From: Deltaproteobacteria bacterium
GTDB lineage: Bacteria; Myxococcota_A; Polyangia; Polyangiales; Houyiibacteriaceae
Direction of reading: 5' to 3'
Length of the DNA: 23,702 nucleotides
Assembly (NCBI GenBank): GCA_034670305.1
Contig: JAXMNT010000078.1
Location: forward strand, 1-23,702
This document shows, piece after piece, positions 1-23,658 of the stretch (positions within the stretch are counted from its first letter, which is position 1; every line of letters starts with the position of its first letter). The position numbers and the translations under genes are program-made. The notes under the pieces were generated by a model. It was not told the DNA's origin and made no database searches. It saw only the letters and a list, made by a program, of their open reading frames with translations.

Positions 1-62
1 GTCCGCTGGGCATCGCGCTCCGATTCGCGCCTCGCCGTCGCGAAACACACGGCGTCCACGAC

Positions 63-125
63 GCGGGCAAGGGCACGGGCAAGGGCAACGGCAAGGGAGC
101 AGGTCGCTTTTCAGCGACCTGCTAG
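63..125 (+). repeat. Composite repeat element copy A1: (GGGCAA)-like hexamers, 11-bp hairpin, terminal CTAG
   Basis: GCGGGCAAGGGCACGGGCAAGGGCAACGGCAAGGG (63-97), then perfect inverted repeat AGCAGGTCGCT-TTTC-AGCGACCTGCT (98-123) ending in CTAG (122-125). Similar to the reverse complement of 23578-23658. Confidence 0.85.
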
Positions 126-327
126 ACACAGCGTCAGCACCAGACACAGCGTCAGCACCAGACACAGCGTCAGCGTCAGCACTAGACACAGCGTCAGCAC
201 CAGACACAGCGTCAGCACCAGACACAGCGTCAGCACCAGACACAGCGTCAGCACCAGACACAGCGTCAGCACCAGACACAGCGTCAGCACCAGACACAGC
301 GTCAGCACCAGAGACAGCGTCAGCACC
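124..327. repeat. 18-bp tandem repeat (AGACACAGCGTCAGCACC), 11 units
   Basis: Counted directly: 11 contiguous units with no spacers. Unit 3 has a 6-nt CAGCGT duplication and a terminal C>T change; unit 11 has one substitution. Confidence 0.97.
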
Positions 328-386
328 ATTCGGGTGGGGGCTTGCTGGCTCGGCGGCATTTTGATGGTGGCGGAGTGCTCGCCCGC

Positions 387-515
387 GTCAAGGGTGCCTC
401 CGGCCCCAGCCTTCGGAAGGCTGGCTTCGCCCTTGACCCAGGCTCCGCTCTCCACCGGGGGCGCTCCGCGCCGCCGAGCAATGTCGCTCTGGCGTGTGAC
501 GCGTTGGAGGCTCTG
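387..515 (+). promoter_or_regulatory. Conserved structured leader of four-helix-bundle gene 1
   Basis: GTCAAGGG (387-394) and CCCTTGAC (430-437) form an inverted pair around the hairpin CCAGCCTTC-G-GAAGGCTGG (406-424). TTGACC at 433-438, GGGGGCGCT at 457-465, GGAGG RBS at 506-510. Blocks are shared with 12572-12713. Confidence 0.65.
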
Positions 516-827
516 ATGATTGTTCTCGAAACTTCGTTCGTTCTCGTGGGGGAGTTGCGCGACGTGCTGGCTGCTGTTTCTCGCAAAGACCGGTCGCTGG
601 CAGACCAGATGCGGCGGGCGGTTCAGTCAGTCGTCCTGAACTGCGCTGAGGCGCAACACGCACGCGGGAAGCGGAGCGTCGACCGCTTCTCGATCGCGTA
701 CGGAGAGGCGAGCGAGCTGAAGGCGGCGCTTCGTCTCGTCCGAGTACTCGGGTATGCCGAGGTCGGCGAGGACGTGACGCGGCGCTGCGATGAGATTTGC
801 GCGATGTTGTACCGGCTGAGTCACTGA
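516..827 (+). CDS. Four-helix-bundle protein (23S rRNA IVP / Avd-like family), 103 aa
   Basis: Motifs [19 protein letters not shown] and [11 protein letters not shown] resemble the family pattern DQxRRAxxSxxxNIAEG...FxxAxGSxxE; C-terminus CAMLYRLS. Start moved to ATG 516, just after GGAGG. Confidence 0.85.
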
Positions 828-840
828 CAGCAGGCTGTTC

Positions 841-864
841 GGCGCCGGCCCTCGGGCCGGCGTC
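841..864 (+). other. GC-rich hairpin downstream of four-helix-bundle gene 1
   Basis: GGCGCCGGCCC-TC-GGGCCGGCGTC with one G-U pair and no U-tract. Confidence 0.5.
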
Positions 865-887
865 GCGTCGGCATCTGCCTCCGGGGG

Positions 888-1151
888 CGGATTCGGCTTC
901 GGGGTCGGCTTCGGGGTCGGCTCGGGGCCGGCTTCGGGGTCGGCTTCGGGGCCGGCTTCGGGGTCGGCTTCGGGGTCGGCTTCGGCTTCGGATTCGGATT
1001 CGGCTTCGGGGTCGGCTTCGGGGTCGGCTTCGGGGTCGGCTTCGGGGCCGCCGGCTTCGGCTTCGGATTCGGCTTCGGCTTCGGCTTCGGCTTCGGCTTC
1101 GGGGTCGGCTTCGGATTCGGCTTCGGCTTCGACTTCGGATTCGGCTTCGGC
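888..1151 (-). repeat. Heterogeneous hexamer array B1 (GCCGAA/CCCCGA/TCCGAA on the minus strand), about 43 units
   Basis: CGGCTT/CGGGGT/CGGATT units fill the gap between two convergent genes. Confidence 0.95.
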
Positions 1152-1156
1152 CGGCT

Positions 1157-2482
1157 CTACACCTGCGCCGACTTCCACCCGCCGCGCCGGAAGCTCGCCC
1201 ACAGAATCACCGCGCGCACCGTCCAATCGAGGGTGCTCGCCATCCACACGCCGCGCAGTCCGAGGTCCAAGACGAACGCGAAGACGTAGGTCGCGGCGAG
1301 TCGCACCATCAGTCCACCGACGAAGGTCGCGCGCAACGCGGCTCGGGTGTCGCCGGCGCCGCGGAGTGCTTCGGCCATCACCGCGGCGACGCCGAGGACG
1401 GGTGCTTCGACGGCGGCGATGGCGAGGCAGGGCACCGCCAAGGCGAGCACGTCGGGGTCGTTCGAGAAGGGCAAGAGCAGCCACTCGGGCACGAGCAGGA
1501 AGGCGAGGGCGAAGAGGCCGAGCAGCCCGAGGGTGTGGGCGAGCGACGACTTGATCATGGCTTCGGCTTGGTCGGGTTTCTTCGCGCCAAGACTCTGCGC
1601 GGCGAGCGCGGCCGCCGCGATGCCGAATCCATCGGCGGAGAGAAAGGCGATTGCCTCGACGCTGATGAGCGTTTGGTTGGCGGCCATGGCGCGTTCCCCC
1701 AGCGCGCCGATCATCGCGACGAACCCGAGGAAGCCGACTTGTTGCAGCAAACGTTCGGCGACGGTTGGCCCGGCGACCGTGCGCACTCGGCGCCACGCGT
1801 CTCGTTCGCCGCCACGGCCGCGCCAGCTCAGTTGCCCTGGCCGGCGTCGGGCGAGCAGGGCCCACAACACCGCCGCCTGCCACACCATCGCGGAGACGCT
1901 GCCGATCGCCGCGCCGCGCGCGCCCATGTCGAGCCCGAACACCAGGCCGATGCTCAAGCCGACGTTGAGCAGCACCCCGACCGAGGAGACGACGAAGGGC
2001 GTTCGGGTGTCGCCGGCCGCCTGCATGCCGACCGCCGCCGTGTAGGAGAGCAACATCGCCGGCATGCCGAGAAAGGAGACCTCGAGGTAGCGCACCGCCT
2101 CGTTGCGTGCGGCGGGACCGACATCGCCGAAGAGACGAAGGCACAACGGGATGGCGAGCAGACCCATCGTCGCCGCGATCACACCGATGCCGAGCGCGCC
2201 GAGGCCGCTGGCCCGCAACGCGGAACCTGCGCCCTCGAAGTCCTCCGCGCCGACGCGCCGTCCGATGAGCGCGATGCTGCCCACGCTGAACGCGCTCAGG
2301 ACGAGCCACGACGTCCACACGAGCGGGCCGCTCATCTGCATGGACGCGAGTGAGTCCGAGTCGAAGTGGCCGAGCACACCGCGGTCGACGAGGAACGCGA
2401 CCGTGTGCAAGAGCTGCTGCGCGATGGCCGGCCAGGCGAGCCGCCTTACCAATCTTCGGATCTCGGACCGAGACAGGCTCAT
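1157..2482 (-). CDS. MATE family efflux transporter (DinF/NorM-like)
   Basis: 441 aa, multi-TM. LAWPAIAQQLLHTVAFLVD, GDTRTPF, MGARGAAIG, RGAGDTR and LGLRGVW are typical MATE motifs. Confidence 0.93.
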   Translation of the reverse strand: MSLSRSEIRRLVRRLAWPAIAQQLLHTVAFLVDRGVLGHFDSDSLASMQMSGPLVWTSWLVLSAFSVGSIALIGRRVGAEDFEGAGSALRASGLGALGIGVIAATMGLLAIPLCLRLFGDVGPAARNEAVRYLEVSFLGMPAMLLSYTAAVGMQAAGDTRTPFVVSSVGVLLNVGLSIGLVFGLDMGARGAAIGSVSAMVWQAAVLWALLARRRPGQLSWRGRGGERDAWRRVRTVAGPTVAERLLQQVGFLGFVAMIGALGERAMAANQTLISVEAIAFLSADGFGIAAAALAAQSLGAKKPDQAEAMIKSSLAHTLGLLGLFALAFLLVPEWLLLPFSNDPDVLALAVPCLAIAAVEAPVLGVAAVMAEALRGAGDTRAALRATFVGGLMVRLAATYVFAFVLDLGLRGVWMASTLDWTVRAVILWASFRRGGWKSAQV

Positions 2483-2532
2483 GTCAGACGCATCGAGTGA
2501 GACGCATCGGCCGACGCATCAGGGGACCAGGC

Positions 2533-3426
2533 TCAGCGCTGGCGCTGAAACTTCACCTTCTGTTTGGGCACGATGCCCTCGCGCTGAAGCACTTCGGTGG
2601 CGAGCGCCTTCACCTTCGGATGGCTTCCCTTTTGGAGGAACGCCCCGAGCTGGTTCGCGTCGGCTTTGGCGAGGCGCATCATCGCGGTGCGCGCGCGCCC
2701 CTTCTTCTTCTGCTTGAGGTACGTGAAGACCTGCGCTCGCAAGAGGAACGGCTTCACTTCGGCGTAGTCGGGATCTTCAGGATCGTAGTCTTCGAGCAGC
2801 TCCGCCGCTTCTTCGTGTTTGCCGGTGCGGGAGAACGCCTCGGCCATCACCGCGGCGTAGAGCGCGCGCTGCTTCGGCTGGGGTTGCGCATCGATGTCGA
2901 TCTGGTCGGCGAGCACCCGCGCGTCGGAGGCGCGGTTCTGAACGAGATGCATGAGCGCGAGCTGTGCGCGCACGTCGCCGCGGATGGCCTTCGGTGCTTT
3001 GTCGAGATCGATCGACTCGAGGATGCGCACGGCCTCCTTGGGATCGTCCTGGGCGACGAGCTGCGCTTGCGCCATCTGTCCGATCGCGTCGTTGCCGCCT
3101 TTGCCACTCTGGAGTTTGGCGAGCGCCTCGGCGCGGCCCTTCTCGTCGGTGGCGCCCTTGAGGATGTCGACGATCGCGGTCGACTTCCGGAGCATGTTCC
3201 ACACGTAGAGGCCGAACCCGACGATCACGAGCGTGAGCACGCCGGCGACCACGAAGCCCCAGTAGGAGATGTACGGGGTGAGCATGCCGGCGATGAGCCA
3301 GAGCACGCCGACCGCGATCGCAATCTGCGCGATGACCTTCCACTTGATGGTCGGTCGCTCCATCTGGGCGAGCGCTTCGGTGGGATCCCTGCGCTCGGGC
3401 AGTTTCGCCTTTTTCCTCTTGGCCAC
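2533..3426 (-). CDS. Hypothetical membrane protein with two N-terminal TM helices and a TPR-like helical C-terminus
   Basis: 297 aa, GTG start, two hydrophobic segments, then Ala/Leu-rich helical repeats (DPKEAVRILESI, GKHEEAAELLE). Confidence 0.75.
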   Translation of the reverse strand: MAKRKKAKLPERRDPTEALAQMERPTIKWKVIAQIAIAVGVLWLIAGMLTPYISYWGFVVAGVLTLVIVGFGLYVWNMLRKSTAIVDILKGATDEKGRAEALAKLQSGKGGNDAIGQMAQAQLVAQDDPKEAVRILESIDLDKAPKAIRGDVRAQLALMHLVQNRASDARVLADQIDIDAQPQPKQRALYAAVMAEAFSRTGKHEEAAELLEDYDPEDPDYAEVKPFLLRAQVFTYLKQKKKGRARTAMMRLAKADANQLGAFLQKGSHPKVKALATEVLQREGIVPKQKVKFQRQR

Positions 3427-3600
3427 GGGGTGGCCTAGCAGGCTGGCGGAAAATGGGCGAACGGAAGCCGCGCATGGTTCTGGTGCCGATCACCGCCCCC
3501 TGGCTGGGGCGAAGCGGCGCGACCTGTGACTTCGCAGACCACAACGGCGACGAGATCACCCGTGCAGGTGGGTTTGCACGATCCTTGCTCTACCCGGGGC

Positions 3601-4452
3601 ATGCGTTTGCTCATGCTCGCCCTGGTCTTGGTTTTCGGCTGCGAGGTCGCCGAACTCTACTCCGACGGAACCCGCCCGATCACCCCCGGTCTGGACGCCG
3701 GCGTCATGAACGACAGCGGCCCCGGCGCGGACAGCGGCCCGGGCGTGGACACGGGCCTGGCTTGTGTGCCCATGTGCTCGGGCCGAGACTGCGGCGACGA
3801 CCGCTGCGAGGGCACCTGCGGCACCTGCGGCGCGGGCGACGCGTGCAGCGAGGCGGGGACCTGCGAGCCGGTCGACCCCGGATGCACCCCGAGCTGTGCG
3901 GGACGCGGATGCGGCGACGACGGCTGCGGGGGGTCGTGCGGCATGTGCGCGGTCGGTCAGATGTGCACCGCCGGCAGCTGCGTGAGCGGCCCGCCCGATC
4001 CGCCCACCGCCACCTGTTCCGGGACCCGCGGCCGCGACGTCGGCACCACCGTTCCGAGCGCGACCTTCACCGACTGCGACGGAAACGAGGTCTCCCTCGA
4101 CTACCTCTGCGGCTACGACGCAGCCTGGGTCTACTCGTTCGCGACCTGGTGCGGCATCTGCCGCAGCGAGATGCGCACCATCAACGACTGGGTCGCCACC
4201 CAGCCGGCAGACCGGTTCGAGATGTTGATCGTCGTCACCAGCACCACCGAACACGGCACCCCGAACGCCGCGTACTGCGACTCGATCCGCGACGAGTTCG
4301 GCCTGACCAACGCGACCGTCTTGTTCGACGACGGCAACCGCTTCCTCAACACCTTCTACTACGGCGGCGCCGGCGCCGAGATGGCGTACGAGAACGGCGT
4401 GATGGTGCAAAAGGGCGGCGTCACCCGCGGCCTCATCGAGAGCTTGCTCTAG
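3601..4452 (+). CDS. Cys-rich lipoprotein with a C-terminal thioredoxin/TlpA-like redoxin domain
   Basis: Signal/lipobox MRLLMLALVLVFGC. Two repeats of CxPxCxGRxCGDDxCxGxCGxC, then TFTDCDGNEVSL...FATWCGICRSEM (CxxC redoxin motif). Start set at ATG 3601. Confidence 0.8.
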   Translation: MRLLMLALVLVFGCEVAELYSDGTRPITPGLDAGVMNDSGPGADSGPGVDTGLACVPMCSGRDCGDDRCEGTCGTCGAGDACSEAGTCEPVDPGCTPSCAGRGCGDDGCGGSCGMCAVGQMCTAGSCVSGPPDPPTATCSGTRGRDVGTTVPSATFTDCDGNEVSLDYLCGYDAAWVYSFATWCGICRSEMRTINDWVATQPADRFEMLIVVTSTTEHGTPNAAYCDSIRDEFGLTNATVLFDDGNRFLNTFYYGGAGAEMAYENGVMVQKGGVTRGLIESLL

Positions 4453-4528
4453 TCCACGCAAAGCGTGGGCTAGCCCTTGCCCTTGCCCTTGCCCCTGCCC
4501 TTGCCCTCCTCGCTGCCCGTGCCCGTGC
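4449..4528 (-). repeat. Composite repeat element copy A2: CTAG-bounded hairpin plus (CCCTTG)n
   Basis: CTAGTCCACGC-AAA-GCGTGGGCTAG (4449-4473, one G-U), then CCCTTG/CCCCTG/CCCGTG hexamers to about 4528. Confidence 0.75.
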
Positions 4529-4566
4529 ACCGCCCTGCGCGCCAAGCGCGGACCTTCGGTCGTTCT

Positions 4567-6549
4567 TCAATCCGCGATGCGTTGGAACTCGATGCGGCGG
4601 TTCTGGCTTCGGCCTTCTTCCGTGTCGTTTTCAGCCACCGGCTGGCTCTCGCCGAGTCCGATCGCTTCGAGCCTCGAGGCGTCGATTTGGAACTGGGAGA
4701 CGAGCCAATCGCGGACCGTGTTCGCGCGTTGCTGACTCAGCCGGAGGTTGTTCCGCGAGCTGCCCTGGCCGTCGGTGTGGCCGCTGATTCGAATCCGGAC
4801 CTCCGGGTGCCTCGTGAGCGAGGTCCCGACGTGCTCGAGAATCGCGAACGCGTCGCCCACGAGGTCGTTGCTGCCAGAAAGGAACTGGACGTCGGGCAAC
4901 ACCATGGCGACTTCGGTCATCACCAAGCAGCCGTCCGCATCCACGGTGGCGCCGCGTGGGGTCTGCGGGCAGGTGTCGTTCACGTCGAGGATGCCGTCGT
5001 TGTCGCTGTCCACCGCCGGCGCTTCGACGACCTCTTCGACCTCTTCGACCGGCTCTGGCGCTTCTTCGACTGGAGCCGCGGCAGTCCCGATGCTCCAGCG
5101 AATGCCGAGGCCGACGATGTCGGCTTCCATGTTGTAGTCGCCGTTGCCGATGTACGCGACGCCGCCTTCGGTGGGCGGCCGGTCGGGTGTGCGGGGTGGG
5201 CGGATCGGGTTGGCCTGCGGCACCGCGCTGTCGCGCACCTGGCGGTCTTGCAGGAACACATGCGCGTAGCTCACGTCGAGCCAGAGGCCGTCCTTGAGCC
5301 GAACGCTCGCGCCGAGGCCCACGATGAACTTCGAGCTGTCGAGCGTCAGCGGCGTCAGGTACGCGTCGTCGAAGCTCGAGTTCTCGTAGTTCACGCCGGC
5401 GCGGATCTGCAGGCGGTCCTCGAGCGTCGTGAACTCGCCGCCGAGCCGCACGCTGAACACATCGTTCATGTTGCGGGGGATGTCGATCGGTCCGACCTGG
5501 TAGTCGCCGATGGCGATGGCGTCGCGGATCCAGACGTTCTTCGGCGTGATCTTGGCGGCGGTCTGACTCGCCCAGTGTTCCCATACGAGCGCGGCTTCGA
5601 TGCGCAACGAAGGCGTCGGCCGCACTTCGACGCCGGCGCGCAAGATCACCGGCAAGCTGAGCTCGAGGTCGGCCTTGTTCCCGTCGACGCGCGCGCCATC
5701 GAAGATCGGCGCGCCCGGCAGGCGCACGTCGAGTTCGGCTTCGCCGCGGATCGCGCGCGGATGCCACACCATGGACGCGCCGATGCGGACCACGTCGGTC
5801 GCGTAGGTCAGGCCCAGGCTGATGCCGGGCGCGATGATCGGGGAGAGGGAGAAGCGGGTGACGCCATCCCACTCGGGGTCCTCCGGCTGGCTGCACGCGA
5901 GCCCGTCGCAGGCGCTGATCGACGTCTCGCCGACGAACGATCCGATGAGCACCGGCACACCCACGCCGATCGAGAAGTTGTCGGTCGGTTTCCACGCGAG
6001 CGACGCGTTCACGTTGAGGAAGAGGCTGCCTTCCAGGGTGAACAGCGAGTAGCGCTGCGGTGCCGCGCTGCAGTTCGGATCGTCGAAGCCCTCTTGAGTG
6101 GTCGCGTCGCAGGTGCCGCCGGACGCCTGTACACCGCGGGGCCAGCTGAGCAGGCTCGCATTGGGGGCGTAGATGCCGACGCCGAGCACCAGGTCGTCCC
6201 GCAGCGGGTGCGAGTACGCGATCATCGGGATCGGGATCGGCGGCGCGCTCAGGTCGACCGTCGGCAGGGTGTTGCCGCCTGAGTCGATGCGGGTGAAGTC
6301 ACCGCGCAGGAACGTGAGGGACGCGTCGAGCAGCAGCTGCTGACCGGACCACGAGAGGCCGGCCGGGTTGTACCAGATGGACTGCGGGTCGTCGGCGCCG
6401 GCCACGAACGCGAAGCCGCGCCCCATGGGTCGGACGCCGCGGTCGGTGAGAAAGAGGCCGCCCGCTTCCGCGGGGGCGGCGTGGGCCAGCACGCCGGTCA
6501 GAACCAGCAGCGCGGCTGTTCCGCTGAATGGGAGAGTGGATTTCGTCAT
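4567..6549 (-). CDS. FadL/OmpP1-type outer-membrane transport barrel fused to a TSP3-like motif and an OmpA C-terminal domain
   Basis: Signal peptide ending AEA-G. GVRPMGRGFAFVAGADDPQSIWYNPAGL is the FadL-family N-terminal signature. DSDNDGILDVNDTCPQTP, then ISGHTDGQG...NLRLSQQRA...GLGESQP...NRRIEF (OmpA). Start moved to ATG 6549. Confidence 0.88.
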   Translation of the reverse strand: MTKSTLPFSGTAALLVLTGVLAHAAPAEAGGLFLTDRGVRPMGRGFAFVAGADDPQSIWYNPAGLSWSGQQLLLDASLTFLRGDFTRIDSGGNTLPTVDLSAPPIPIPMIAYSHPLRDDLVLGVGIYAPNASLLSWPRGVQASGGTCDATTQEGFDDPNCSAAPQRYSLFTLEGSLFLNVNASLAWKPTDNFSIGVGVPVLIGSFVGETSISACDGLACSQPEDPEWDGVTRFSLSPIIAPGISLGLTYATDVVRIGASMVWHPRAIRGEAELDVRLPGAPIFDGARVDGNKADLELSLPVILRAGVEVRPTPSLRIEAALVWEHWASQTAAKITPKNVWIRDAIAIGDYQVGPIDIPRNMNDVFSVRLGGEFTTLEDRLQIRAGVNYENSSFDDAYLTPLTLDSSKFIVGLGASVRLKDGLWLDVSYAHVFLQDRQVRDSAVPQANPIRPPRTPDRPPTEGGVAYIGNGDYNMEADIVGLGIRWSIGTAAAPVEEAPEPVEEVEEVVEAPAVDSDNDGILDVNDTCPQTPRGATVDADGCLVMTEVAMVLPDVQFLSGSNDLVGDAFAILEHVGTSLTRHPEVRIRISGHTDGQGSSRNNLRLSQQRANTVRDWLVSQFQIDASRLEAIGLGESQPVAENDTEEGRSQNRRIEFQRIAD

Positions 6550-6589
6550 ATCGAAGTGCGCGACGCCACGGAAGCAGCCCGCGGGGAGT

Positions 6590-9500
6590 CTATTCGGTGA
6601 GCTCGCGGGACTGGATGACGTTGTAGATGCGTTCGAGTCCACGATCCTGATCGGTCAGGAACTCATGCGCGGTGGTCAGCACCGCGCGGTGGTCGTCGCT
6701 GCGCAGACTCGTGCCGAGTCCGGGATCGACCCGGTTCACTTCCGCCACGACATCGAGAATGGTCTCGAGCGGTGTCTCGCCTCGGCCGCTCTCTGGGAGC
6801 GTCACGAGGTTGGAGAGGATCGCGGGCAGGGTGTGTCGGTCGTCGATGTCCGCCATCGCGCGCATCAAGTCCATGGTCTCGTCGAGCGCGCTTCCGCTGA
6901 GCGAGAGGGTGGCTGGGTCCACGTTGCCACCAGCGGCGGCGACGTCGCGCACGCCGGGGACCATGCCTTCGGAGAGCACGTGGAGCAGCGGCACGAGGTT
7001 CAGATCGTCTTCGAGCACCTGCATCAGATCCGCGGTTGAGACGACCATCGTGTCGAACGCATCGAAGCCGGACGCCTCGCTCATCAGGTACTGCATCATG
7101 CCGGCGAGCTCTTCTTTGGCCGGTTCGTCGCGTTGCACCGCTTCGAGAAACGCCATCGACGCGGCGCCCACCGAGGAGCCCATCGAGTCCTCGACGCGGC
7201 CGGCGAGCCCGCGCGCCCACGGGACCAGATCCCCGGTGCGGCGGTGGTCGTCGATGCGCGCTTGCAGGAACGGCACGAGTACCCGGGCGAGCCCGTAGGT
7301 GCGGCGGTTGGCGAGCTCGTAGGTGCCCCGGCGACCAGGCGGCTCGCGGGTGGTCAGCAGCTGGTCCACCAGATCGCTCCGGCCCGATCGCCAGCGCACG
7401 AGCCGGTCCGGATCGCTCGCGGCGAACGCGTCGTCGAAGCTGCTGAGCGAGTCGAGCACGAGATGCAGCGGCGTGTTCGGAATCGGGGTGCCGCCGTTGG
7501 TGGCGGTCGTAGGCAACCCGGCCCGGTTGACGAGGCCCGGGCTGAGTTGCGGGTTCACCGCCGCTTCGGTGGCGGCGGCGAGGGTCTGGAACCCATCGAG
7601 CCCCGGTCGCACTTCGGTCGCGCCCAGCACCTGGCCGAGATCGTAGAGCCGGCGAATCATGCCGCCGGCGAGCTCGGGGTCGCAGCGCCCATCGGGGGCG
7701 TAGTCGCAGTCCGCGAAGAGGTTGGCGACGATGGGTTCATAGCTGCGGCCGTTGTCGTGGTGCGCGAAGAAGGGCGCGCTCGGGTCGGCGTCCTGGGTCA
7801 TGTCGGTGCCGCTCGAGGGCCAGTGGGTGTGAAGCGACGTGATGAGTTCGGTGAACAAGAACCGGCCGTCGGTGCGGCGGTCGAAGGTGTCGAACGCTTC
7901 GAGCAGCGGGCTCATCGCGTCGTAGAAGCTGACCTCCTCGGCATCTGCGCAGACGGTGCCGGGCGCGACCAACGCGTCCCCGCAGAACCGGAAGTTGCGC
8001 TCCCACGCGAAGATGACCGGGTCCGCGTGGCGATCGACCATCACCGCGCCGTCGCGGGTGAGCGGCGGATCCACCAGGGCTTCGAGGAACTCGTTGCCCT
8101 CGCGGGTGTAGACCATGCGCGCGAGCGCCTGCGGGGTCGGACGCCTCGTCAATCCGTCGATGCCGCTCGACTCTTCGAGGGTCGCATCCGCGTCGATGCC
8201 AAGGCTGCCACCGACCTCGAGCAGCACGCCGAGGAACTCGTCTTTGATCTCGAGTTCGTAGCGGCCGATGATCGAGAGCGCGAAGGCTTGCGCGACGTCG
8301 GTGATCTCGAGCAGCTCACACTCGTCGTAGCTCCCGCCGAAGAGCGGGTAGGTGACGTTGAGTCCGAAGAGCCGAAGCCGAAGGCGCGCGCCGTCTTTGT
8401 TGCAGACCCGCACGTAGCCGAGGTCGTGAATCGCACTGATGGAGCGCTGGAAGATGCTCATGTTGCCCGGTCCATCGGGCGCGCCGCGATCGACTTCGTC
8501 GGTCCACACCTGGTCGGTGAGCTGGCGGTTGATGTCCGCTGGATCGAGCGCGATGGGATCGCGGAAGCGCATCATCTCGGCGTAGATCGTGCCGAGGCGT
8601 TTGCTGCGGGGGTCGGCGAGGGCGCGGAGGGTGCCCTCCATCATGCCGGGCTCCTGGGTCATCCATTGCGCGACCTGAATCACGTCGTCCCAGAGTTCGC
8701 TCTCCGGGGGAATGGACGCGTCGGGTGTGGCCTCGGCGACCGCATCGGCGACCAAGCCGCCGCGGATGAGCGCGGCGATCTCCGGCTCGTGATCCGTCAT
8801 CAGCAGGTCGACCAGCGTGAGCGCGTCGTTGGTCTCGGGGCGGTGGAGCAGCTCGCCAGTGGCGTAGAGCAGATCGAACATGGGGCCGCGGGCGGTGTCG
8901 TAGCCCATGTAGCGCGCGTTCACCGGACCGAGGTCTTCGGTCTGCATGGTGGGCGGCCCCATCAGGACCGGCAGTCCGTACGCCATGTTCAGGAGCGTGG
9001 GCTGGTCTGGGTCGAGCCAGGGCGCCGCGTCGCGCGAGAGGCCGGCGAGCAAGCTCTGGTTCACGTCGATGTACCGGTAGAGCGCGCTCGAGTCGGCGCG
9101 CAATGCGCGTCCCGCCGGTCCGCGGAGCACGGTGTCGGGCTCGGTGATGGTCGCGAACGGGGAGGGCACTTCGAGCAGGCCGCCGCTCGTCGACAGAAAA
9201 CGGCCGAGCGGATCGACGTCCGCGAGTCCGTCTCGATCCATGTCGGCGAAGGGCGGCGGCACCGATCCATCGGCGCTCGCGGGCACGACCAGGCCGCGCC
9301 CGTCGCGCACCGCCATGAAGTGCGCGTTGCCGTCACCGAATTCGGCTCGGGTGGAGAACAGGAGCTGCCGGGTGAGCTCGAGGGTGCTCGGACCGTCTTC
9401 GGGCACGCTGTCTTCCGCGGTCGCCATGTCGAGCGCGATCGCGCCGACGAGCTGGTTCCATTCGGCCTCGGCCGACCCACCCGGCGCGAGTGCGCCGAGC

Positions 9501-10072
9501 GCGGTGTCGGTGAGTTCGACGATGCGCGGGTAGGAGAGAGCGGGCCGGGCGACGCCGAGCGCGACGCGCGAAGATCGGTATCCGAGCCGAGTGCTGACCC
9601 GCTCGAGCGCGCCGATGGCTTCGTCGTCGGCCACGAGTTTGTCGAACAGATCGGCGAGCGCCCGAGTCTGGCTCGGGAGCCGTTCGTCCGGCGGGTCGTA
9701 GAACGGAATCAGCTGACCGGTGAAGTGGTCGAGGTCGTCTTCGAGTGTCTCGGGAAACGCCACCTCGAGCGCGGGCACGAGTCGGCCCCGCATCTCCGCC
9801 ATCACCCGGAGCCGTTCGGTCGGTGCGGTGGAGGCGTCGACTTGGCCGCGGCAGAGTGCCTTGGTCGACTCGCCGGTCACGTCGGTCGGCACCTCGCTCG
9901 AGGCCAGCCGCTGACAGAAGACGTAGTACATCTCGGCGCCAAGGCTTTGCCGAACGGCCGTCACCCGTTCGGTGTCGAAGTCGTGCGAGCAGCTCGGTCC
10001 CGCCAGGATCAGCAGACCGAGAAACCACGGAAGCGGCACACGCCGGACGGCGCGTTTGCGAAGAGAAGACAT
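6590..10072 (-). CDS. Large (~1160 aa) hypothetical lipoprotein
   Basis: Long ORF with normal amino-acid composition. Basic N-terminus, hydrophobic stretch and Cys (LLILAGPSC); Ca-binding-like DMDRDGLADVD. Start ATG 10072 is uncertain. Confidence 0.8.
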   Translation of the reverse strand: MSSLRKRAVRRVPLPWFLGLLILAGPSCSHDFDTERVTAVRQSLGAEMYYVFCQRLASSEVPTDVTGESTKALCRGQVDASTAPTERLRVMAEMRGRLVPALEVAFPETLEDDLDHFTGQLIPFYDPPDERLPSQTRALADLFDKLVADDEAIGALERVSTRLGYRSSRVALGVARPALSYPRIVELTDTALGALAPGGSAEAEWNQLVGAIALDMATAEDSVPEDGPSTLELTRQLLFSTRAEFGDGNAHFMAVRDGRGLVVPASADGSVPPPFADMDRDGLADVDPLGRFLSTSGGLLEVPSPFATITEPDTVLRGPAGRALRADSSALYRYIDVNQSLLAGLSRDAAPWLDPDQPTLLNMAYGLPVLMGPPTMQTEDLGPVNARYMGYDTARGPMFDLLYATGELLHRPETNDALTLVDLLMTDHEPEIAALIRGGLVADAVAEATPDASIPPESELWDDVIQVAQWMTQEPGMMEGTLRALADPRSKRLGTIYAEMMRFRDPIALDPADINRQLTDQVWTDEVDRGAPDGPGNMSIFQRSISAIHDLGYVRVCNKDGARLRLRLFGLNVTYPLFGGSYDECELLEITDVAQAFALSIIGRYELEIKDEFLGVLLEVGGSLGIDADATLEESSGIDGLTRRPTPQALARMVYTREGNEFLEALVDPPLTRDGAVMVDRHADPVIFAWERNFRFCGDALVAPGTVCADAEEVSFYDAMSPLLEAFDTFDRRTDGRFLFTELITSLHTHWPSSGTDMTQDADPSAPFFAHHDNGRSYEPIVANLFADCDYAPDGRCDPELAGGMIRRLYDLGQVLGATEVRPGLDGFQTLAAATEAAVNPQLSPGLVNRAGLPTTATNGGTPIPNTPLHLVLDSLSSFDDAFAASDPDRLVRWRSGRSDLVDQLLTTREPPGRRGTYELANRRTYGLARVLVPFLQARIDDHRRTGDLVPWARGLAGRVEDSMGSSVGAASMAFLEAVQRDEPAKEELAGMMQYLMSEASGFDAFDTMVVSTADLMQVLEDDLNLVPLLHVLSEGMVPGVRDVAAAGGNVDPATLSLSGSALDETMDLMRAMADIDDRHTLPAILSNLVTLPESGRGETPLETILDVVAEVNRVDPGLGTSLRSDDHRAVLTTAHEFLTDQDRGLERIYNVIQSRELTE

Positions 10073-10215
10073 CGAAACCCCTGAGACACCGTGAGACCCC
10101 TGCGGTGCAAGGGCCGCGGCTCCCCGCACCCGAGCGGGGAGACACCTGGTCAATCTATCAGTGCACAGGCGGGCGGGTCGAGGGCGGCGTGCTCAGTCGG
10201 GACCGGCGATGCTCA

Positions 10216-10544
10216 GCCGATGCCGACGCCGATGCTGACGCCGAATCCGAATCCGAAGCCGACGCCGACGCCGATGCCGATGCCGAAGCCGACGGCGACG
10301 CCGATGCCGATGCCGATGCCGAGCCGAATCCGACGACGAAGCCGATGCCGATGCGGATGCCGATGCCGATGCCGATGCCGATGCCGGAGCCGAAGCCGAC
10401 GCCGATGCCGATGCCGATGCCGACGCCGAATCCGATGCCGGAGCCGATGCCGATGCCGATGCCGATGCCGATGCCGACGCCGATGCCGAAGCCGAAGCCG
10501 AAGCCGATGCCGAAGCCGATGCCGACGCCGAATCCGAAACCGAC
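10216..10544 (+). repeat. Heterogeneous hexamer array B2 (GCCGAT/GCCGAC/GCCGAA/TCCGAA), about 54 units
   Basis: Read directly; lies between divergently transcribed genes and ends about 20 nt before ATG 10564. Confidence 0.95.
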
Positions 10545-10563
10545 CAGGGTATGCTCGGCGCCT

Positions 10564-12570
10564 ATGTCGCACTCGATCTGGAAGTTGCTCGCGCTCCTTG
10601 GAACCACACTCTTCGTCTGGAGCCCGCCGAGCGCGCATGCGTTCTGTGGGTTCTACGTCGCGGGCGCGGAGGCGCCGCTCTACAACGACGCGACCATGGT
10701 CGTGCTCTTGCGCGAGGGCACGCACACGGTGCTGTCGATGCGGAACGACTACCAGGGGCCGCCGGAGAACTTCGCGATGGTCGTGCCGGTGCCAACGGTG
10801 CTCGCAGAGACGGACGTGCAGGCGCTCGACGCGGATGTGTTCGAACGCGTCGACCAACTCTCGGCGCCGCGGCTCGTCGAGTACTGGGAGCAGGACCCAT
10901 GTTTCGTGGGCGGGGGAGGCACTGGGGAAGGCACCATCGGTCTCGGCAACCTCGGCACCGTTGGTCATGGCGCCGGGTACGGTCGCGGAAGCGGCGCGTC
11001 GGTCACGGTCGAGGCGGAGTTCCAGGTCGCCGAGTACGAGATCGTGATCTTGAGCGCGCGCGACTCCGGCGGTCTCGACCGCTGGCTGCGCGACAACGGC
11101 TACCAGATCCCGGATGGCGCCGAAGCGGCCCTGCGGCCGTACGTGGAAGCGGGCACGAAGTTCTTCGTCGCCAAAGTCGACGTCTCCAAGGTCACCTTCG
11201 AAGACGGCCGCGCGATGCTCAGCCCGCTGCGCATGCACTACGAGAGCGAGACGTTCAGCCTGCCGGTGCGGCTCGGCATGCTCAACTCTTCGGGCACTCA
11301 GGATCTGATCGTGAACATTCTGGCGGACGACCAACGCTACGAAGTCGCGAACTACCCCAACGTCACCATCCCGACGAACCTCACGGTGACCGACGACGTG
11401 CGCGAACGGTTCGGCGAGGTGTACGCCGCCATCTTCGACGAGACGCTGGCGCGCAACCCAGGCTCGGTGGTGACGGAGTACGCGTGGCAGGCGTCGAGCT
11501 GCGATCCGTGTCCCGGGTCGACGAGTGGATTGAGCGGGCAGGATCTGCGGGTGCTCGGCTCCGGGGTCGCGACTGGTCAGATCATGAACGCGGGACTGCG
11601 GGCGGCGCGCGGGGCGGAGCTGGCGATGGTCCGGACCGGGGCTGGGCACGTGACGGAAGGTTTGTCGCGGGAAGTGGCCCGGCGGATCTTCCGGCGCCAC
11701 CTCAACGAAGTGAAGTCTTGCCACGAACGGCAGCTGGCGATCACCCCTGGCCTGACCGGGCGTCTGAACCTGGTCTTGCAGATCGAACCCGACGGGCGGG
11801 TGGGTGCGTCGGAGGTCCGCGGGTCGACCGTGAACGCCCTCGACGATTGCGTGGCTCAAGCGGCGCGGCGCTGGGTGTTCCCCCAACCCGAAGGGGGCCG
11901 GCAGGTGACGTACCATCAGCCGATCGTGTTCACGATCCAGCAGGCTGGCCGCGGGTACGGGTTCGGTGGGTTCGGTGGGTTCGGCGGCACGCCCAAGGTG
12001 CTGACCCGGCTGCACTACCGCTACGGCGACGGCACGCTGGGAGAAGACCTCGTGTTCCGGGAGGCGCCGCCGATCGTCGGCGGTCGCGAACACTTGGACG
12101 AGGAGGGCAACCTCTCTCAGGTCGCCGAACCGGTGGCGCAGGGCTCGAACAACTTCCAGGGGCGTTACGTGATCCGCCACGAGTGGGAGGGCGAGGTCGC
12201 GTGCGACAACCCGATTCGAGGGCGGTGGGGCGGACCGTGGCGGACGGACGACGCGCCGCCGCCTCCACACTCGACCTTGGCCGCGACAAACCTCGCCCAC
12301 GTGTCGCGCGGTTCGCTCACGCTCTCGAACCATCTGGCCAAACCGGTGCCGGCGCTCGCGATCACCGCGGCGGTGTTGGCTGGTGCGGGGGCGCCGGTGC
12401 CAGCGGCGAGCGGCGCGGTGGCGGCGGCGACCGATGTGACGCCGCTCGAGCGAGACCAGGAGTCGGACGGCGGGTGCGGGGGGTGCGCGACGGCGGGCAG
12501 TGGTGGTGTGCCGGCGGGGTTGGTGTTCGTGGTCGGGGTGGTGGCGATGGCGATGCGACGGAGACGCTGA
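10564..12570 (+). CDS. DUF2330 domain protein with an inserted AgmX/PglI-type TonB-C domain and a MYXO-CTERM-like tail
   Basis: Signal peptide ending AHA-FCGFYV. YQGPPENFAMVVPVP, SAPRLVEYWEQDPC and EYAWQASSCDPCPG are typical of DUF2330. GLSREVARRIFRRHLNEVKSCHERQL...WVFPQPEGG resembles the AgmX C-terminus. Tail is GGCGGCAT...hydrophobic...RRRR. Confidence 0.85.
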   Translation: MSHSIWKLLALLGTTLFVWSPPSAHAFCGFYVAGAEAPLYNDATMVVLLREGTHTVLSMRNDYQGPPENFAMVVPVPTVLAETDVQALDADVFERVDQLSAPRLVEYWEQDPCFVGGGGTGEGTIGLGNLGTVGHGAGYGRGSGASVTVEAEFQVAEYEIVILSARDSGGLDRWLRDNGYQIPDGAEAALRPYVEAGTKFFVAKVDVSKVTFEDGRAMLSPLRMHYESETFSLPVRLGMLNSSGTQDLIVNILADDQRYEVANYPNVTIPTNLTVTDDVRERFGEVYAAIFDETLARNPGSVVTEYAWQASSCDPCPGSTSGLSGQDLRVLGSGVATGQIMNAGLRAARGAELAMVRTGAGHVTEGLSREVARRIFRRHLNEVKSCHERQLAITPGLTGRLNLVLQIEPDGRVGASEVRGSTVNALDDCVAQAARRWVFPQPEGGRQVTYHQPIVFTIQQAGRGYGFGGFGGFGGTPKVLTRLHYRYGDGTLGEDLVFREAPPIVGGREHLDEEGNLSQVAEPVAQGSNNFQGRYVIRHEWEGEVACDNPIRGRWGGPWRTDDAPPPPHSTLAATNLAHVSRGSLTLSNHLAKPVPALAITAAVLAGAGAPVPAASGAVAAATDVTPLERDQESDGGCGGCATAGSGGVPAGLVFVVGVVAMAMRRRR

Positions 12571-12571
12571 C

Positions 12572-12713
12572 GCCTTCGGCCCGGCGCGAAGCGCGCCGCT
12601 TCGCTGGCGCGCTTCGCGCTTGCTCGTCCTTGACCCGCCACCCCGCCGACAGCTGGGGGCGCTGCGCGCCCTCGGGCGAGTTCACGCTCGGCGTACACAA
12701 CGGTAGGTTCTCG
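12572..12713 (+). promoter_or_regulatory. Conserved structured leader of four-helix-bundle gene 2
   Basis: GCCTTCGGCCC; perfect 14-bp stem GCGCGAAGCGCGCC/GGCGCGCTTCGCGC (12584-12619); CCTTGACCC (12628-12636); GGGGGCGCT (12655-12663); stem-loop; AGG before ATG. Collinear with 396-515. Confidence 0.65.
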
Positions 12714-13025
12714 ATGCTGGTATTCGACAAGTCGCTGCTTCTTCTCTCTTTGCTGGTGCGCGAGGTTCTGCCTCGCATTCGCGAGGCGTCGCTGAAGTCG
12801 CAGCTGCGGCGGGCGGCGCAGGCCGTTCCTCTGCTGATTGCGGAGTCGCGAAGCGCGCGCGGCGCGCGGAACCCGGACGGGTTCTCGCGGGCGCTTGGCG
12901 AAGCGCGTGAGGTGAAGGCGGCTCTGCAGGTCGCAGCGGTGATGGGGTACGTCGAGGCGGGCGCGGACGTGTACGACCTCGCGGACCACGTCTGCGCGAT
13001 GCTGTTCAAGCTGAGTCGGAACTGA
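12714..13025 (+). CDS. Four-helix-bundle protein (23S rRNA IVP / Avd-like family), 103 aa
   Basis: SLKSQLRRAAQAVPLLIAE, DGFSRALGEAREVKAAL, CAMLFKLS. Roughly 45-50% identical by eye to 516-827. It is hidden as the tail of the 824-aa track ORF. Confidence 0.83.
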   Translation: MLVFDKSLLLLSLLVREVLPRIREASLKSQLRRAAQAVPLLIAESRSARGARNPDGFSRALGEAREVKAALQVAAVMGYVEAGADVYDLADHVCAMLFKLSRN

Positions 13026-13029
13026 GCGG

Positions 13030-13069
13030 GGTGAGCGGAGCGTTTCGGGTTCGAGACGCTCCGCTCACC
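13030..13069. terminator. 18-bp hairpin directly after four-helix-bundle gene 2 (terminator or element end)
   Basis: GGTGAGCGGAGCGTTTCG-GGTT-CGAGACGCTCCGCTCACC with one G-U pair and no U-tract; lies between convergent units. Confidence 0.55.
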
Positions 13070-13076
13070 GGACTGG

Positions 13077-13364
13077 CTAGTCTACGTCTCGTGCTTCCCG
13101 CTCGTGAAGCTCCAACGCGAGTTGGCGAAACGTTTCGGTGTGCCTGGCAAGCTCCTGCCACCTGCCCCCGAACTCCATGCACCACTGCAGGGTGGCGTCG
13201 CCGTCGATGAGCAAATCTTCGATTAGGTAGTGATTTACGAGGCCTCGCCAGTTCGGTGAACGTAGGACCGAACCGTCTCCGGCGCTTCGACTCCCAGCTC
13301 CGGCGCCTCCAGGGTTGACTGCGGAGCACACGCGAAAAGCAGCAGGGAGCTCAACCAACCGCAC
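13077..13364 (-). pseudogene. Possible degenerate small gene or hypothetical protein
   Basis: 95-aa ORF with a protein-like C-terminal half. An alternative frame near the 5' end reads like a lipoprotein signal (WLSSLLLFAC). Composition looks less GC-rich by eye. Confidence 0.3.
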
Positions 13365-13365
13365 G

Positions 13366-13821
13366 CTATTCCGTGGGGAGGACTTCGGCGCGGATGGTGA
13401 TGACGCCGGCTCGGATCATGTCGAGGCGTTCGGCGGCGGCGCGGCTGAGATCGAGGATGCGGCTGTGGTCGCGGAAGGGGCCGCGGTCGTTGATGCGGAC
13501 GACGACGCTGGCGACGTCTTGGCCGTCGACGACGCGGACGACGCGGACGCGGGTGCCGAAGGGGAGGTCGCGGCTGGCTGCGGTGAGCTGGGTCGGGTCG
13601 TAGGGTTCGCCGCTCGCGGTGGAGCGGCCGGCGAGGGCGTCGGAGTAGTAGCTCGCGCGGCCTTCGAGGACCCGCTCGGGATCGGCACCGTTCTCGGACC
13701 CGGCACCGGTCCTCCCGCGGTCTTGGGCGGTGGCGCCGCCGCACGCGAGCGCGACGAGCAGTACGCAGGCGGAGAACCCGGCGGCGAAGGCGGTGCGTAT
13801 CACGTTCGAATCATGCCCCAT
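13366..13821 (-). CDS. rlpA: Septal ring lytic transglycosylase RlpA family protein (DPBB domain only)
   Basis: GRASYY...GRSTASGEPYD...LTAASRDLPFGTRVRV...VRINDRGPF...RILDLSRAAA; lipobox LVALAC. Start could be GTG 13803. Confidence 0.92.
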   Translation of the reverse strand: MGHDSNVIRTAFAAGFSACVLLVALACGGATAQDRGRTGAGSENGADPERVLEGRASYYSDALAGRSTASGEPYDPTQLTAASRDLPFGTRVRVVRVVDGQDVASVVVRINDRGPFRDHSRILDLSRAAAERLDMIRAGVITIRAEVLPTE

Positions 13822-18253: not shown

Positions 18254-18371
18254 CCCGAAGCCGAGGCCGGAGCCGATGCCGAAGCCGATGCCGAAGCCGA
18301 TGCCGAAGCCGATGCCGAAGCCGATGCCGATGCCGAAGCCGATGCCGAAGCCGATGCCGAAGCCGAGGCCG
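18254..18371 (+). repeat. Hexamer array B4 (GCCGAAGCCGAT)n, about 19 units
   Basis: Read directly; begins immediately after the sigma-factor stop codon (minus strand) and lies upstream of prmC. Confidence 0.95.
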
Positions 18372-23577: not shown

Positions 23578-23658
23578 CTAGCAGGTTGCTGAAGAACGCC
23601 CGCAGGGCGTTCTCGCAGCCTGCCCCTTGCCCCTGCCCTTGCCTTTGCCCTTGCCCGC
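23578..23658 (-). repeat. Composite repeat element copy A3: CTAG, nested hairpin, (CCCTTG)n
   Basis: CTAGCAGGTTGC...AGAACGCCC-GCA-GGGCGTTCT...GCAGCCTGC, then CCCTTG-type hexamers. The reverse complement matches 63-125 at 31/35 (hexamer part) and 15/16 (TTCAGCRACCTGCTAG end). Confidence 0.85.

Follow-up and report, generated by a model that had tools for sequence, protein, structure and literature searches.

Organization of the copy 1 locus

The DNA analyzed here, referred to as the window, is a stretch of 23,702 nucleotides (nt) corresponding to contig JAXMNT010000078.1 (C78) of a Deltaproteobacteria bacterium of the class Polyangia (assembly GCA_034670305.1; genome G000, 7.93 Mb in 105 contigs, 96% complete). 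Near its left end lies a small cassette, in which a folded non-coding leader, a gene for a four-helix-bundle (4HB) protein, and a GC-rich 3′ hairpin follow one another on the forward strand between two hexamer tandem arrays. We refer to this instance as copy 1 and to a second, 5′-truncated instance in the window as copy 2.

The upstream array (124–328), delimited by Tandem Repeats Finder (TRF), comprises 11 copies of the 18-nt unit AGACACAGCGTCAGCACC and is of the CAG-phase hexamer type, like those of other family A copies (the families are described below). A short linker with the G-rich tract GGGTGGGGGC..TTGCTG (329–347, +), recognized from the sequence and the family A alignment, separates the array from the leader domain, which consists of helices P0 to P4 and spans 348–479 (+). 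The domain was matched by a covariance model at 345–482 with 131.9 bits and is supported by pair counts in three alignments (A3, A4, and A6). A second linker (480–515, +), for which the sequence and an alignment of 34 leaders indicated a small hairpin (about 476–489) and a Shine–Dalgarno-like GGAGG (506–510), leads to the start codon of the 4HB gene (516–827, +; family A; 103 aa; protein P0001). The 3′ hairpin (840–865, +) begins 13 nt past the stop codon and has a stem of 11–12 bp, a 4-nt loop, and no T-run; an equivalent hairpin of 10–12 bp was found in nearly all of the 34 copies examined, its stem sequence depending on the family. The downstream array (888–1151, TRF) consists of about 44 copies of a CGGCTT-type hexamer and ends at the stop codon of a convergent MatE gene (1157–2482, −; Pfam), and copy 1 is flanked by arrays on both sides.

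A first-pass annotation of the window had proposed that leader, open reading frame (ORF), and hairpin form one unit, having noticed a second gene of the same kind at 12714–13025 (+; family B; 103 aa; P0002). Its observations were borne out. The two 312-nt genes encode diverged proteins that are 49% identical across 89 aligned residues, the collinear upstream blocks are common to both copies, the motif CCTTGACCC lies at 431–439 and 12628–12636 (85 and 86 nt before the respective ATG), and each gene is followed by a GC-rich hairpin (about 18 bp in copy 2, at 13030–13069, +). The conserved domain, which had been taken to start at 387, in fact starts at 348. The 5′ strands of P0 and outer P1 had been overlooked, as had the identity of CCTTGACCC as a helix strand, the truncation of copy 2, and the hexamer arrays in the conserved architecture.

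Fold and covariation of the leader

The helix model was derived from consensus folding of each family and inspection. P0 closes the whole domain; in copy 1 it pairs 348–354 with 473–479 and can be extended to 348–357 with 470–479, a perfect 10-nt complement. Its strands are GCUCGGCGG with CCGCCGAGC in A-type leaders, GCCCGAUGG with CCCUCGGGC in B-type leaders, and GCCCGGCGG with CCGCCGGGC in C-type leaders. A conserved single-stranded junction stretch follows P0 and leads into P1, which is long and irregular. The outer part of P1 (about 366–378 with 447–456) is family-specific yet always complementary, with GGAG.GC pairing with GC.CUCC in family A, GGUCGGCGGGG with CCCCGCCGACC in family B, and GUCGUCUGGCG with CGCCAGACGAC in family C. 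The inner part pairs 387–394 with 430–437, and because an upstream GTCAAGG complements CCTTGAC, CCTTGACCC is the 3′ strand of this helix. P1 opens to a three-way junction with P2 (396–404; GGCC-UNC-GGCC) and the variable hairpin P3 (407–423), and the P4 hairpin (460–472) precedes the 3′ strand of P0. All helices lie on the forward strand. The minimum free energy of the copy 1 leader was −79.1 kcal/mol (z = −3.9), and none of 200 shuffled sequences was equally stable. Copy 1 is devoid of the extra 5′ hairpins (H0–H2) that most family A copies carry in the family A alignment.

Two initial interpretations of parts of the leader were rejected. A UNCG tetraloop in P2 was dropped, as a 3–4 bp stem with a U-N-C triloop fitted better. 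A reading of CCTTGACCC as a −35 box was also abandoned, as this motif pairs with GTCAAGG and covaries with it (the last pair changes from G-C to A-U) and no −10 element follows. The sigma-54 consensus, compared with the leader by eye, did not fit.

Compensatory change was quantified in three alignments. A3, a MAFFT alignment of 30 copies from G000, was evaluated with a conservative structure of 24 pairs; 97.6% of the cells were paired, compared with 33–45% when the partners were slid, and seven of the 24 pairs showed compensatory changes. Across genomes, 93.1% of the cells were paired in A4 (29 copies from nine genomes) and 93.8% in A6 (47 matches from 14 genomes; 37–50% with the partners slid), these percentages being inflated by the fitting of both alignments to the covariance model. 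Compensatory changes were seen at 25 of 33 pairs in A4 and 29 of 33 in A6, for which the covariation score was 0.596 against 0.143 after shuffling, with none of 500 shuffles as high. The sequences of P0 and outer P1 differ completely from genus to genus, yet their strands remain complementary, and nine outer-P1 pairs lying outside the model built from A3 (R1) still covary. Since 7–12 contiguous positions remain complementary with unrelated sequences, the pairing goes beyond model fitting. The leader fold is conserved through compensatory change. No leader match was found in Rfam 15, either at E ≤ 1 across the whole window, at the gathering score, or at E ≤ 5 on five leader loci.

The G-rich tract immediately 5′ of P0 was also seen, by inspection, in the upstream sequences of relatives. 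In the window, this tract (329–347, GGGUGGG-like) is complementary to the C-rich stretch (437–446, CCCGCCC-like) after the 3′ strand of P1, and the same complementarity was noted by eye in most copies; it is conceivable that the two stretches pair with each other in competition with P1.

The four-helix-bundle protein

The assignment of both genes to the fold family of the 23S rRNA intervening-sequence proteins (IVPs) and Avd, made in the first-pass annotation, was corroborated by curated profiles. P0001 scored 55.7 bits against PF05635 (cut-off 33.8; E = 6.3e-15) and 61.5 bits against TIGR02436 (cut-off 24; E = 7.9e-17), and P0002 scored 41.6 and 41.9 bits against the same two profiles (cut-offs 33.8 and 24). 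An AlphaFold2 monomer model of P0001 has four helices (pLDDT 96.8). Foldseek matched this model to 2gsc and 2rld with TM scores of 0.81–0.88 and to Avd (4dwl/8ub7) with a TM score of about 0.74 at a sequence identity of only about 14%; the best sequence match from phmmer was also 2gsc (7.9e-5). The nearest named protein relatives are from metagenome-assembled genomes (MAGs) labelled Kofleriaceae, Polyangiales, and Polyangiaceae.

Stand-alone members of PF05635 occur widely and are often multicopy. Multiple copies were also seen in several relatives of G000, with matches in 22 of 31 genomes and up to 31 matches each. We know of no function for the stand-alone proteins outside diversity-generating retroelements (DGRs), and of no nuclease motif in the 4HB family. 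A PADLOC search with four proteins gave no match.

Copies within the genome

Collecting the 4HB genes of G000, as the first-pass annotation had proposed, gave 47 PF05635 matches, 39 of which were above the cut-off. The composite pattern CCTTGACCC..GGGGGCGC occurred 24 times in the genome, always a few hundred nt upstream of a PF05635 match and on the same strand. Because all 24 occurrences precede such matches and the fold is more stable than expected (z as above), the resemblance between copies 1 and 2 goes beyond chance. Families A and B each account for 14 matches (copy 1 belonging to A and copy 2 to B), family C for 9, and family D, the canonical type, which is often fragmentary or located at contig ends, for 9–10. 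One architecture is common to families A, B, and C but absent from family D, which has neither leader nor arrays. The shared order is an array, 40–180 nt of less conserved sequence ending in the G-rich tract, the leader, the ORF, the GC-rich hairpin, and often a second array.

R1 detected 38 leaders in G000 at E ≤ 0.001. Together with the weakly scoring copy 2 and a leader at C10:56795, which is interrupted by an insertion and is not among the scored loci, these make up about 40 leader loci. An intact-length 4HB ORF was present at 33 of them; at three, it was disrupted by an insertion or frameshift, at one (C1:200930), it was cut after four codons, and three loci (C18:54465, C22:10039, and C54:5128) had no 4HB ORF. 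In the ORF-less loci, the leader through the 3′ strand of P1 is joined straight to the 3′ hairpin, with deletion end-points that differ. Copy 2 and C15:123159 are truncated at the 5′ end and intact at the 3′ end, and 3′-truncated and internally deleted copies were also found.

Some cassettes are interrupted in the leader or ORF by insertions of about 70–80 nt belonging to two recurring sequence types that resemble miniature inverted-repeat transposable elements (MITEs); the interrupted cassettes are C28:6824–7126, C68:36053–36355, C10:57086–57388, and those in the C19:96076 and C11:27473 regions. These insertions make up a second small dispersed repeat family.

Several family D fragments lie at contig ends (C77:1, C31:7, C43:3, and the end of C83). 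In TRF flanks, roughly the first 125 nt of the window (flanking sequence, a GGGCAA array, and the hairpin AGCAGGTCGC..GCGACCTGCT) reappear where contig C1 begins, which indicates that contig ends fall in repeats.

Hexamer tandem arrays at the cassette borders

In G000, 36 of the 38 leaders scored by R1 have an array with a period that is a multiple of six within 260 nt upstream. Relative to the 4HB genes, 35 of the 47 matches have an array within 450 nt upstream, compared with 9% of random positions, and 20 have one within 200 nt downstream, compared with 4%. The array type is specific to the family (CAGnnn in A, nCCGAn in B, and CCGCTn in C), with a unit sequence that varies between copies. 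In families B and C, a copy is often bordered left and right by arrays that agree in type and orientation.

Such arrays are abundant in the genome as a whole. Those of at least 60 bp number 1009 and total 172 kb, or about 2% of the genome, the main units being AAGCCG (299 arrays) and AAGGGC (266 arrays). Typical locations are the gap between divergent genes and the sequence directly behind a stop codon or a terminator-like hairpin. With a minimum of 48 bp, 1139 arrays were counted, and 36 of them adjoin leaders. Within the window, arrays of this kind lie at 65–97, 124–328, 888–1151, 4473–4536, 10216–10531, 14887–15029, 18255–18371, and 23619–23656.

Distribution in other Polyangia

Between 21 and 53 candidates were scored per genome when relatives were scanned for the leader (21 in the sample of 150 genomes). 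R1 matched eight further genomes among 60 relatives, belonging to three genera of the same family and to two other families, and a second model (R2) matched 10 of 150 sampled genomes of the class Polyangia, which represent six further families. The leader motif thus occurs in at least 14 genomes from several families of Polyangia, with at least 17 copies in G097 and at least 11 in G057. In the conserved arrangement, the folded domain measures about 135–160 nt, the linker to the gene roughly 5–60 nt, and the 4HB protein 103–113 aa. A 4HB ORF lay behind the motif in 13 of 15 loci fetched from the first set and 13 of 19 from the second. Arrays precede at least 13 of the 15 first-set loci, as judged by inspecting the upstream sequence, and in the second set, they precede seven of eight copies in G097, two of three in G173, and none of the remaining eight loci (from G089, G103, G137, G110, G093, and G184). 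Six more distant 4HB loci from named MAGs (L092–L097) gave no credible match to R1 (best E = 0.16), so the leader is confined to one branch of the 4HB family.

The core proposal of the first-pass annotation, a single unit, is thereby supported, and none of the findings that it had named as refuting this proposal was obtained. Leader, ORF, and hairpin occur together at about 40 loci in G000 and in at least 13 other genomes, the leader blocks recur upstream of other family members and covary strongly, the copies cluster by genome, as described in the next section, and the neighboring genes in the window are unrelated. The mechanisms suggested for it, a non-autonomous mobile element or an RNA–protein module working with an enzyme encoded elsewhere, remain conjectural; no trans-acting enzyme for the cassette was identified.

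Some variants of the arrangement were seen in relatives. In G013, G002, and G012, 4HB genes occur as convergent pairs 40–110 nt apart, and in one G013 pair (L076, G013:C11:205495–208637), each partner has its own leader motif, at 1501–1643 (+) and 2446–2580 (−) of the locus. Two motifs in L101 (G103) are oriented toward each other, and the stretch between them has no 4HB ORF. In two G110 copies (L103 and L110), which are among the fetched loci without a 4HB ORF, the motif lies 100–140 nt ahead of the gene for a predicted lipoprotein, and the mature part of this lipoprotein begins with long Asp-Thr/Asp-Ala repeats, which amount to a coding hexamer array.

The full-text literature searched yielded nothing on the leader, on 4HB cassettes in multiple copies, or on hexamer arrays of Myxococcota. 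The 4HB protein family and its Avd relative are already known. The folded leader, its strict linkage to one 4HB branch, the array-bordered cassette, and its repeated amplification in Polyangia were found neither in Rfam nor in the literature searched.

Selection and amplification history

The proportion of synonymous differences (pS) within families A, B, and C was 0.33, 0.41, and 0.37, and the ratio of nonsynonymous to synonymous proportions (pN/pS) was 0.18, 0.09, and 0.13, respectively. The low pN/pS indicates that the 4HB proteins have been kept functional in dozens of copies, and the pS values indicate that the copies are not very recent. Leader p-distances in the same families were 0.07, 0.09, and 0.10, a divergence 3.5–5 times slower than that of synonymous sites.

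A maximum-likelihood tree built from 59 proteins united families A, B, and C in one clade (support 97/93), and the copies of G097, G057, G027, and G173 were each monophyletic. As the copies cluster by genome, each lineage expanded its own set. The genome-specific clades, the dispersed single-gene locations, and the truncated and ORF-less copies together identify a proliferating element and not a vertically inherited gene set. The cassette multiplied separately in several genomes, leaving truncated and ORF-less remnants.

Proposed mode of action and alternative explanations

We favor the reading that the cassette is a proliferating unit of leader RNA and Avd-like 4HB protein that has no transposase of its own and spreads by recombination between arrays, and we consider it about evenly poised between being right and being wrong. 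The leader would be part of the 5′ untranslated RNA of the gene and, by analogy with phage Avd, could serve as a binding platform for the oligomeric 4HB protein encoded directly behind it. The outcome might be feedback control, a stable RNA–protein particle, or both. Spread would occur by duplication into or beside hexamer arrays, most simply through homologous recombination between arrays of the same type, and reverse transcription would not be involved. A role as RNA is consistent with the placement of the fold, which is on the same strand as the gene, always in the same order and orientation, and shortly before the ribosome-binding site. The unpaired nucleotides of the P1 internal loop (UGCUCGG opposite CCUGCGC) and of the junctions are conserved across genera, which suggests a specific ligand. 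At C1:195200–196300, behind a full family A element and its downstream array, the upstream array and the first 100 nt of the 5′ region occur a second time, as would be expected after a circle had integrated by recombination within that segment; this lends some structural support to the proposed route.

Several observations weigh against this reading, in addition to the model fitting of A4 and A6 mentioned above. No RNA run was found among the sequencing runs containing window positions 300–2500, which were four DNA runs from a “plastic metagenome” study and runs with a small share of the region, and a sigma-70 consensus scan of positions 1–1300 returned no site. The ribosome-binding site is not visibly sequestered, with the Shine–Dalgarno sequence outside the fold; no T-run follows P4 or P0, and between genomes the spacing from motif to start codon ranges from about 5 to 57 nt, variation that a translational switch would not typically show. 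Binding of the 4HB protein to the leader is proposed by analogy. With regard to recombination, the arrays to the left and right of a family A copy differ in type, and simple excision between flanking arrays therefore fails for this family. No empty site or insertion polymorphism was observed over positions 1–13500 in the contigs of four metagenome runs, where contigs break at arrays; the joints listed in these contigs lie between arrays and have short sides, and none removes a cassette. A short target-site duplication, if any, would be masked by the flanking arrays. Finally, paired columns contained 31 G-U/U-G cells against 27 A-C/C-A cells, which gives no strand signal, and of 46 copies, only 25 folded more stably as the sense strand. 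Without a wobble excess or a strand asymmetry, a single-stranded DNA fold or a cruciform fits the pairing data equally well.

This last point underlies an alternative that we regard as unlikely, in which the domain functions at the DNA level. Folded in a single strand, it would be recognized as the left end of a non-autonomous transposon whose right end is the 3′ hairpin. The element would be moved in trans by the genome's Y1 (HUH) transposases related to REP-associated tyrosine transposases (RAYTs), as in the IS200/IS605-derived PATE or in repetitive extragenic palindromes (REPs) and bacterial interspersed mosaic elements (BIMEs), and the 4HB protein would be cargo or an accessory factor. Candidate enzymes are available, as Y1_Tnp was matched 11 times in G000, 12 in G097, five in G173, four in G027, and two in G013, each of the five carrier genomes tested had at least one match, and one G173 match (C467:997–1182) lies about 530 nt upstream of a motif copy (C467:1712). 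However, G057, with at least 11 motif copies, has only one weak Y1 match (E = 1.9e-4), and the Y1 proteins reach 38.8 bits on the profile of REP-associated transposases, whose cut-off is 80. A 5′ hairpin headed by GTAG is present in families A and C, and 15 of its 16 occurrences in the genome are at 4HB elements, but such hairpins are missing from copy 1 and from other genera. Similarly, the three ORF-less derivatives retain the leader and the 3′ hairpin, as expected if these were the ends, but they differ in their deletion end-points. Known HUH substrates are short hairpins, unlike a multi-branched domain of 135 nt with long-range helices, and purifying selection on about 33 proteins would be unexpected for passive cargo.

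The Y1_Tnp genes of G000 are eleven paralogs of about 235–250 aa (C20:45721, C31:83470, C38:23649, C68:18551, C1:180072, and six more), whose best NCBIfam match is the REP-associated tyrosine transposase, below its cut-off. Two further transposon types were considered. Rolling-circle transposition of the IS91 type was set aside with no Y2_Tnp (PF04986) match in G000, G097, G057, or G173, and no MITE-type terminal inverted repeats were found at copy 1, where the best candidate (400–409 with 851–860, 10 nt at 90%) is at chance level.

It is rather improbable that the cassettes are an immobile, ordinary paralogous family that has kept a cis-regulatory 5′ untranslated region (for example, a leader of riboswitch type or one that binds protein) through old duplications, the arrays being normal intergenic content. 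The substantial within-family pS (0.33–0.41) speaks against very young copies, purifying selection acts on leader and protein alike, only 36 of the 1139 arrays adjoin leaders, and in G110, the motif precedes the gene of the Asp-Thr-repeat lipoprotein. Against this, the copies are dispersed singly among unrelated genes, and monophyly per genome would need repeated independent expansions. Seen from the leaders, arrays adjoin 36 of 38, compared with about 9% of random positions; array, leader, and 3′ hairpin are inherited jointly with sharp borders, and truncated, ORF-less, and partially duplicated copies are present.

It appears very improbable that the cassette is a non-autonomous retroelement, with a reverse transcriptase from another locus copying the leader-to-hairpin transcript and the Avd-like protein assisting as cofactor. 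Avd is described as an obligatory cofactor of reverse transcriptase in a preprint (10.1101/2023.10.23.563531). The borders of the unit would match a transcript, G000 has three RVT_1 genes, and copies such as copy 2 and C15:123159, truncated at the 5′ end and intact at the 3′ end, could represent incomplete cDNAs; however, 3′-truncated and internally deleted copies exist too. The three reverse transcriptases of G000 best match retron families and not those of DGRs, and none lies beside a cassette. No RVT_1 match was found in G097 (at least 17 copies; 97% complete in 20 contigs) or G173 (92% complete), and reverse transcription is therefore unlikely as the main route. The G000 genes (C23:86418, C10:168437, and C67:18832) are ORFs of 439–554 aa that match retron reverse transcriptase families just below the curated cut-offs.

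An addiction module of the type III toxin–antitoxin kind, in which the array or leader would neutralize the protein and which would explain persistence without a transposase, can be virtually set aside. The order of tandem repeats, structured RNA, and small ORF resembles ToxIN-type loci in outline, but type III antitoxin repeats are identical units of about 30–40 nt before the toxin gene, whereas the units here are 6 nt long (periods 6–18 nt) and differ between copies of one family and so cannot be a specific antitoxin, PADLOC gave no match, the 4HB family has no known nuclease motif, and about 33 intact copies per genome would be unusual.

A more far-reaching form of the RNA–protein reading that we favor is doubtful. 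In this form, the Avd-like protein and its cognate leader RNA would constitute a selfish particle that spreads without transposase or reverse transcriptase, using the arrays as landing pads, by excision as a circle that re-integrates through homology between same-type arrays, and it may even seed arrays. If this were true, arrays and cassette would be two halves of one genome-shaping system in Polyangia, and stand-alone “23S rRNA IVP” proteins would be RNA-binding partners of structured RNAs generally.

Comparison with known systems

The cassette resembles the Avd/DGR system in that a small helical-bundle protein of the same PF05635 fold family is encoded beside a conserved structured non-coding segment. 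A stem of 11 bp with a tetraloop cap and flipped-out bases is held by all five protomers of Avd in the phage DGR particle (10.1101/2023.10.23.563531). In contrast to DGRs, the cassette has no DGR-type reverse transcriptase (the RVT_1 genes of G000 being retron-like and located elsewhere), its structured segment is 5′ and not 3′ of the gene, and it is present in tens of copies per genome. Repeat scans of positions 100–1200 revealed no template/variable repeat pair, no search dedicated to such pairs having been made.

The 23S rRNA IVP or “S23 ribosomal protein” family (XCC0516, 2gsc; BT_0352, 2rld) gave the best sequence and fold matches and is also multicopy. Unlike IVP genes, those of the cassette are not inside rRNA, as Rfam detected no rRNA in the window or tested loci, and their flanks are protein-coding; no conserved architecture of leader and arrays was found for the IVP family in the literature searched.

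The cassette shares with REP/BIME sequences and their RAYTs, and with BOX and Correia elements, a dispersed, intergenic, hairpin-rich, and lineage-amplified character, and RAYT-like genes are present. REP/BIME, BOX, and Correia elements are short and non-coding, whereas the cassette is about 550 nt long, encodes a protein under selection, and has a multi-branched domain of 135 nt conserved across families of the class and borders made of microsatellite arrays.

Like the leaders of ribosomal-protein genes and riboswitches, the domain is a conserved, covarying fold on the coding strand directly upstream of an accompanying ORF. It differs from autoregulatory leaders and riboswitches in having no Rfam match, no evident sequestration of the ribosome-binding site, and ties to a single multicopy family and its arrays, and in persisting in ORF-less copies.

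A covarying fold tied to one PF05635 branch provides a concrete, testable partner for stand-alone members of the family. The leader is a large structured motif without an Rfam family, with comparative support as strong as is usual for functional RNAs. The cassette also links two features of large Polyangia genomes, namely their array content and proliferation without a recognizable mobility gene, and offers a system for studying the spread of repeats and small genes by recombination.

Copy 2 and neighboring genes

The leader of copy 2 (12571–12713, +), assigned from the family B alignment, is truncated at the 5′ end. It starts at P2 and lacks the array, the G-rich tract, and the 5′ strands of P0 and P1, and it was matched only weakly by the covariance model (12529–12680, 35.7 bits). 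It begins right behind the stop codon (12568–12570) of a DUF2330/TonB_C gene, and this junction is spanned in all four metagenome runs by public contigs with pieces covering 10509/10515–12621.

A Pfam scan of the 24 ORFs of the window detected no transposase, recombinase, or reverse transcriptase, in line with what the first-pass annotation had stated. The neighbors were unrelated genes, as it had also noted, and are of housekeeping type, encoding MatE, TPR, FadL/OmpA-type, DUF2330/TonB_C, DPBB, cytochrome, acyl-CoA dehydrogenase, PrmC, sigma factor, APH, CMD, and radical SAM proteins. The DUF2330/TonB_C protein (10552–12570) ends in a Gly/Cys-rich segment, a hydrophobic helix, and RRRR, a C-terminus that we take to resemble a sorting signal of the MYXO-CTERM type.

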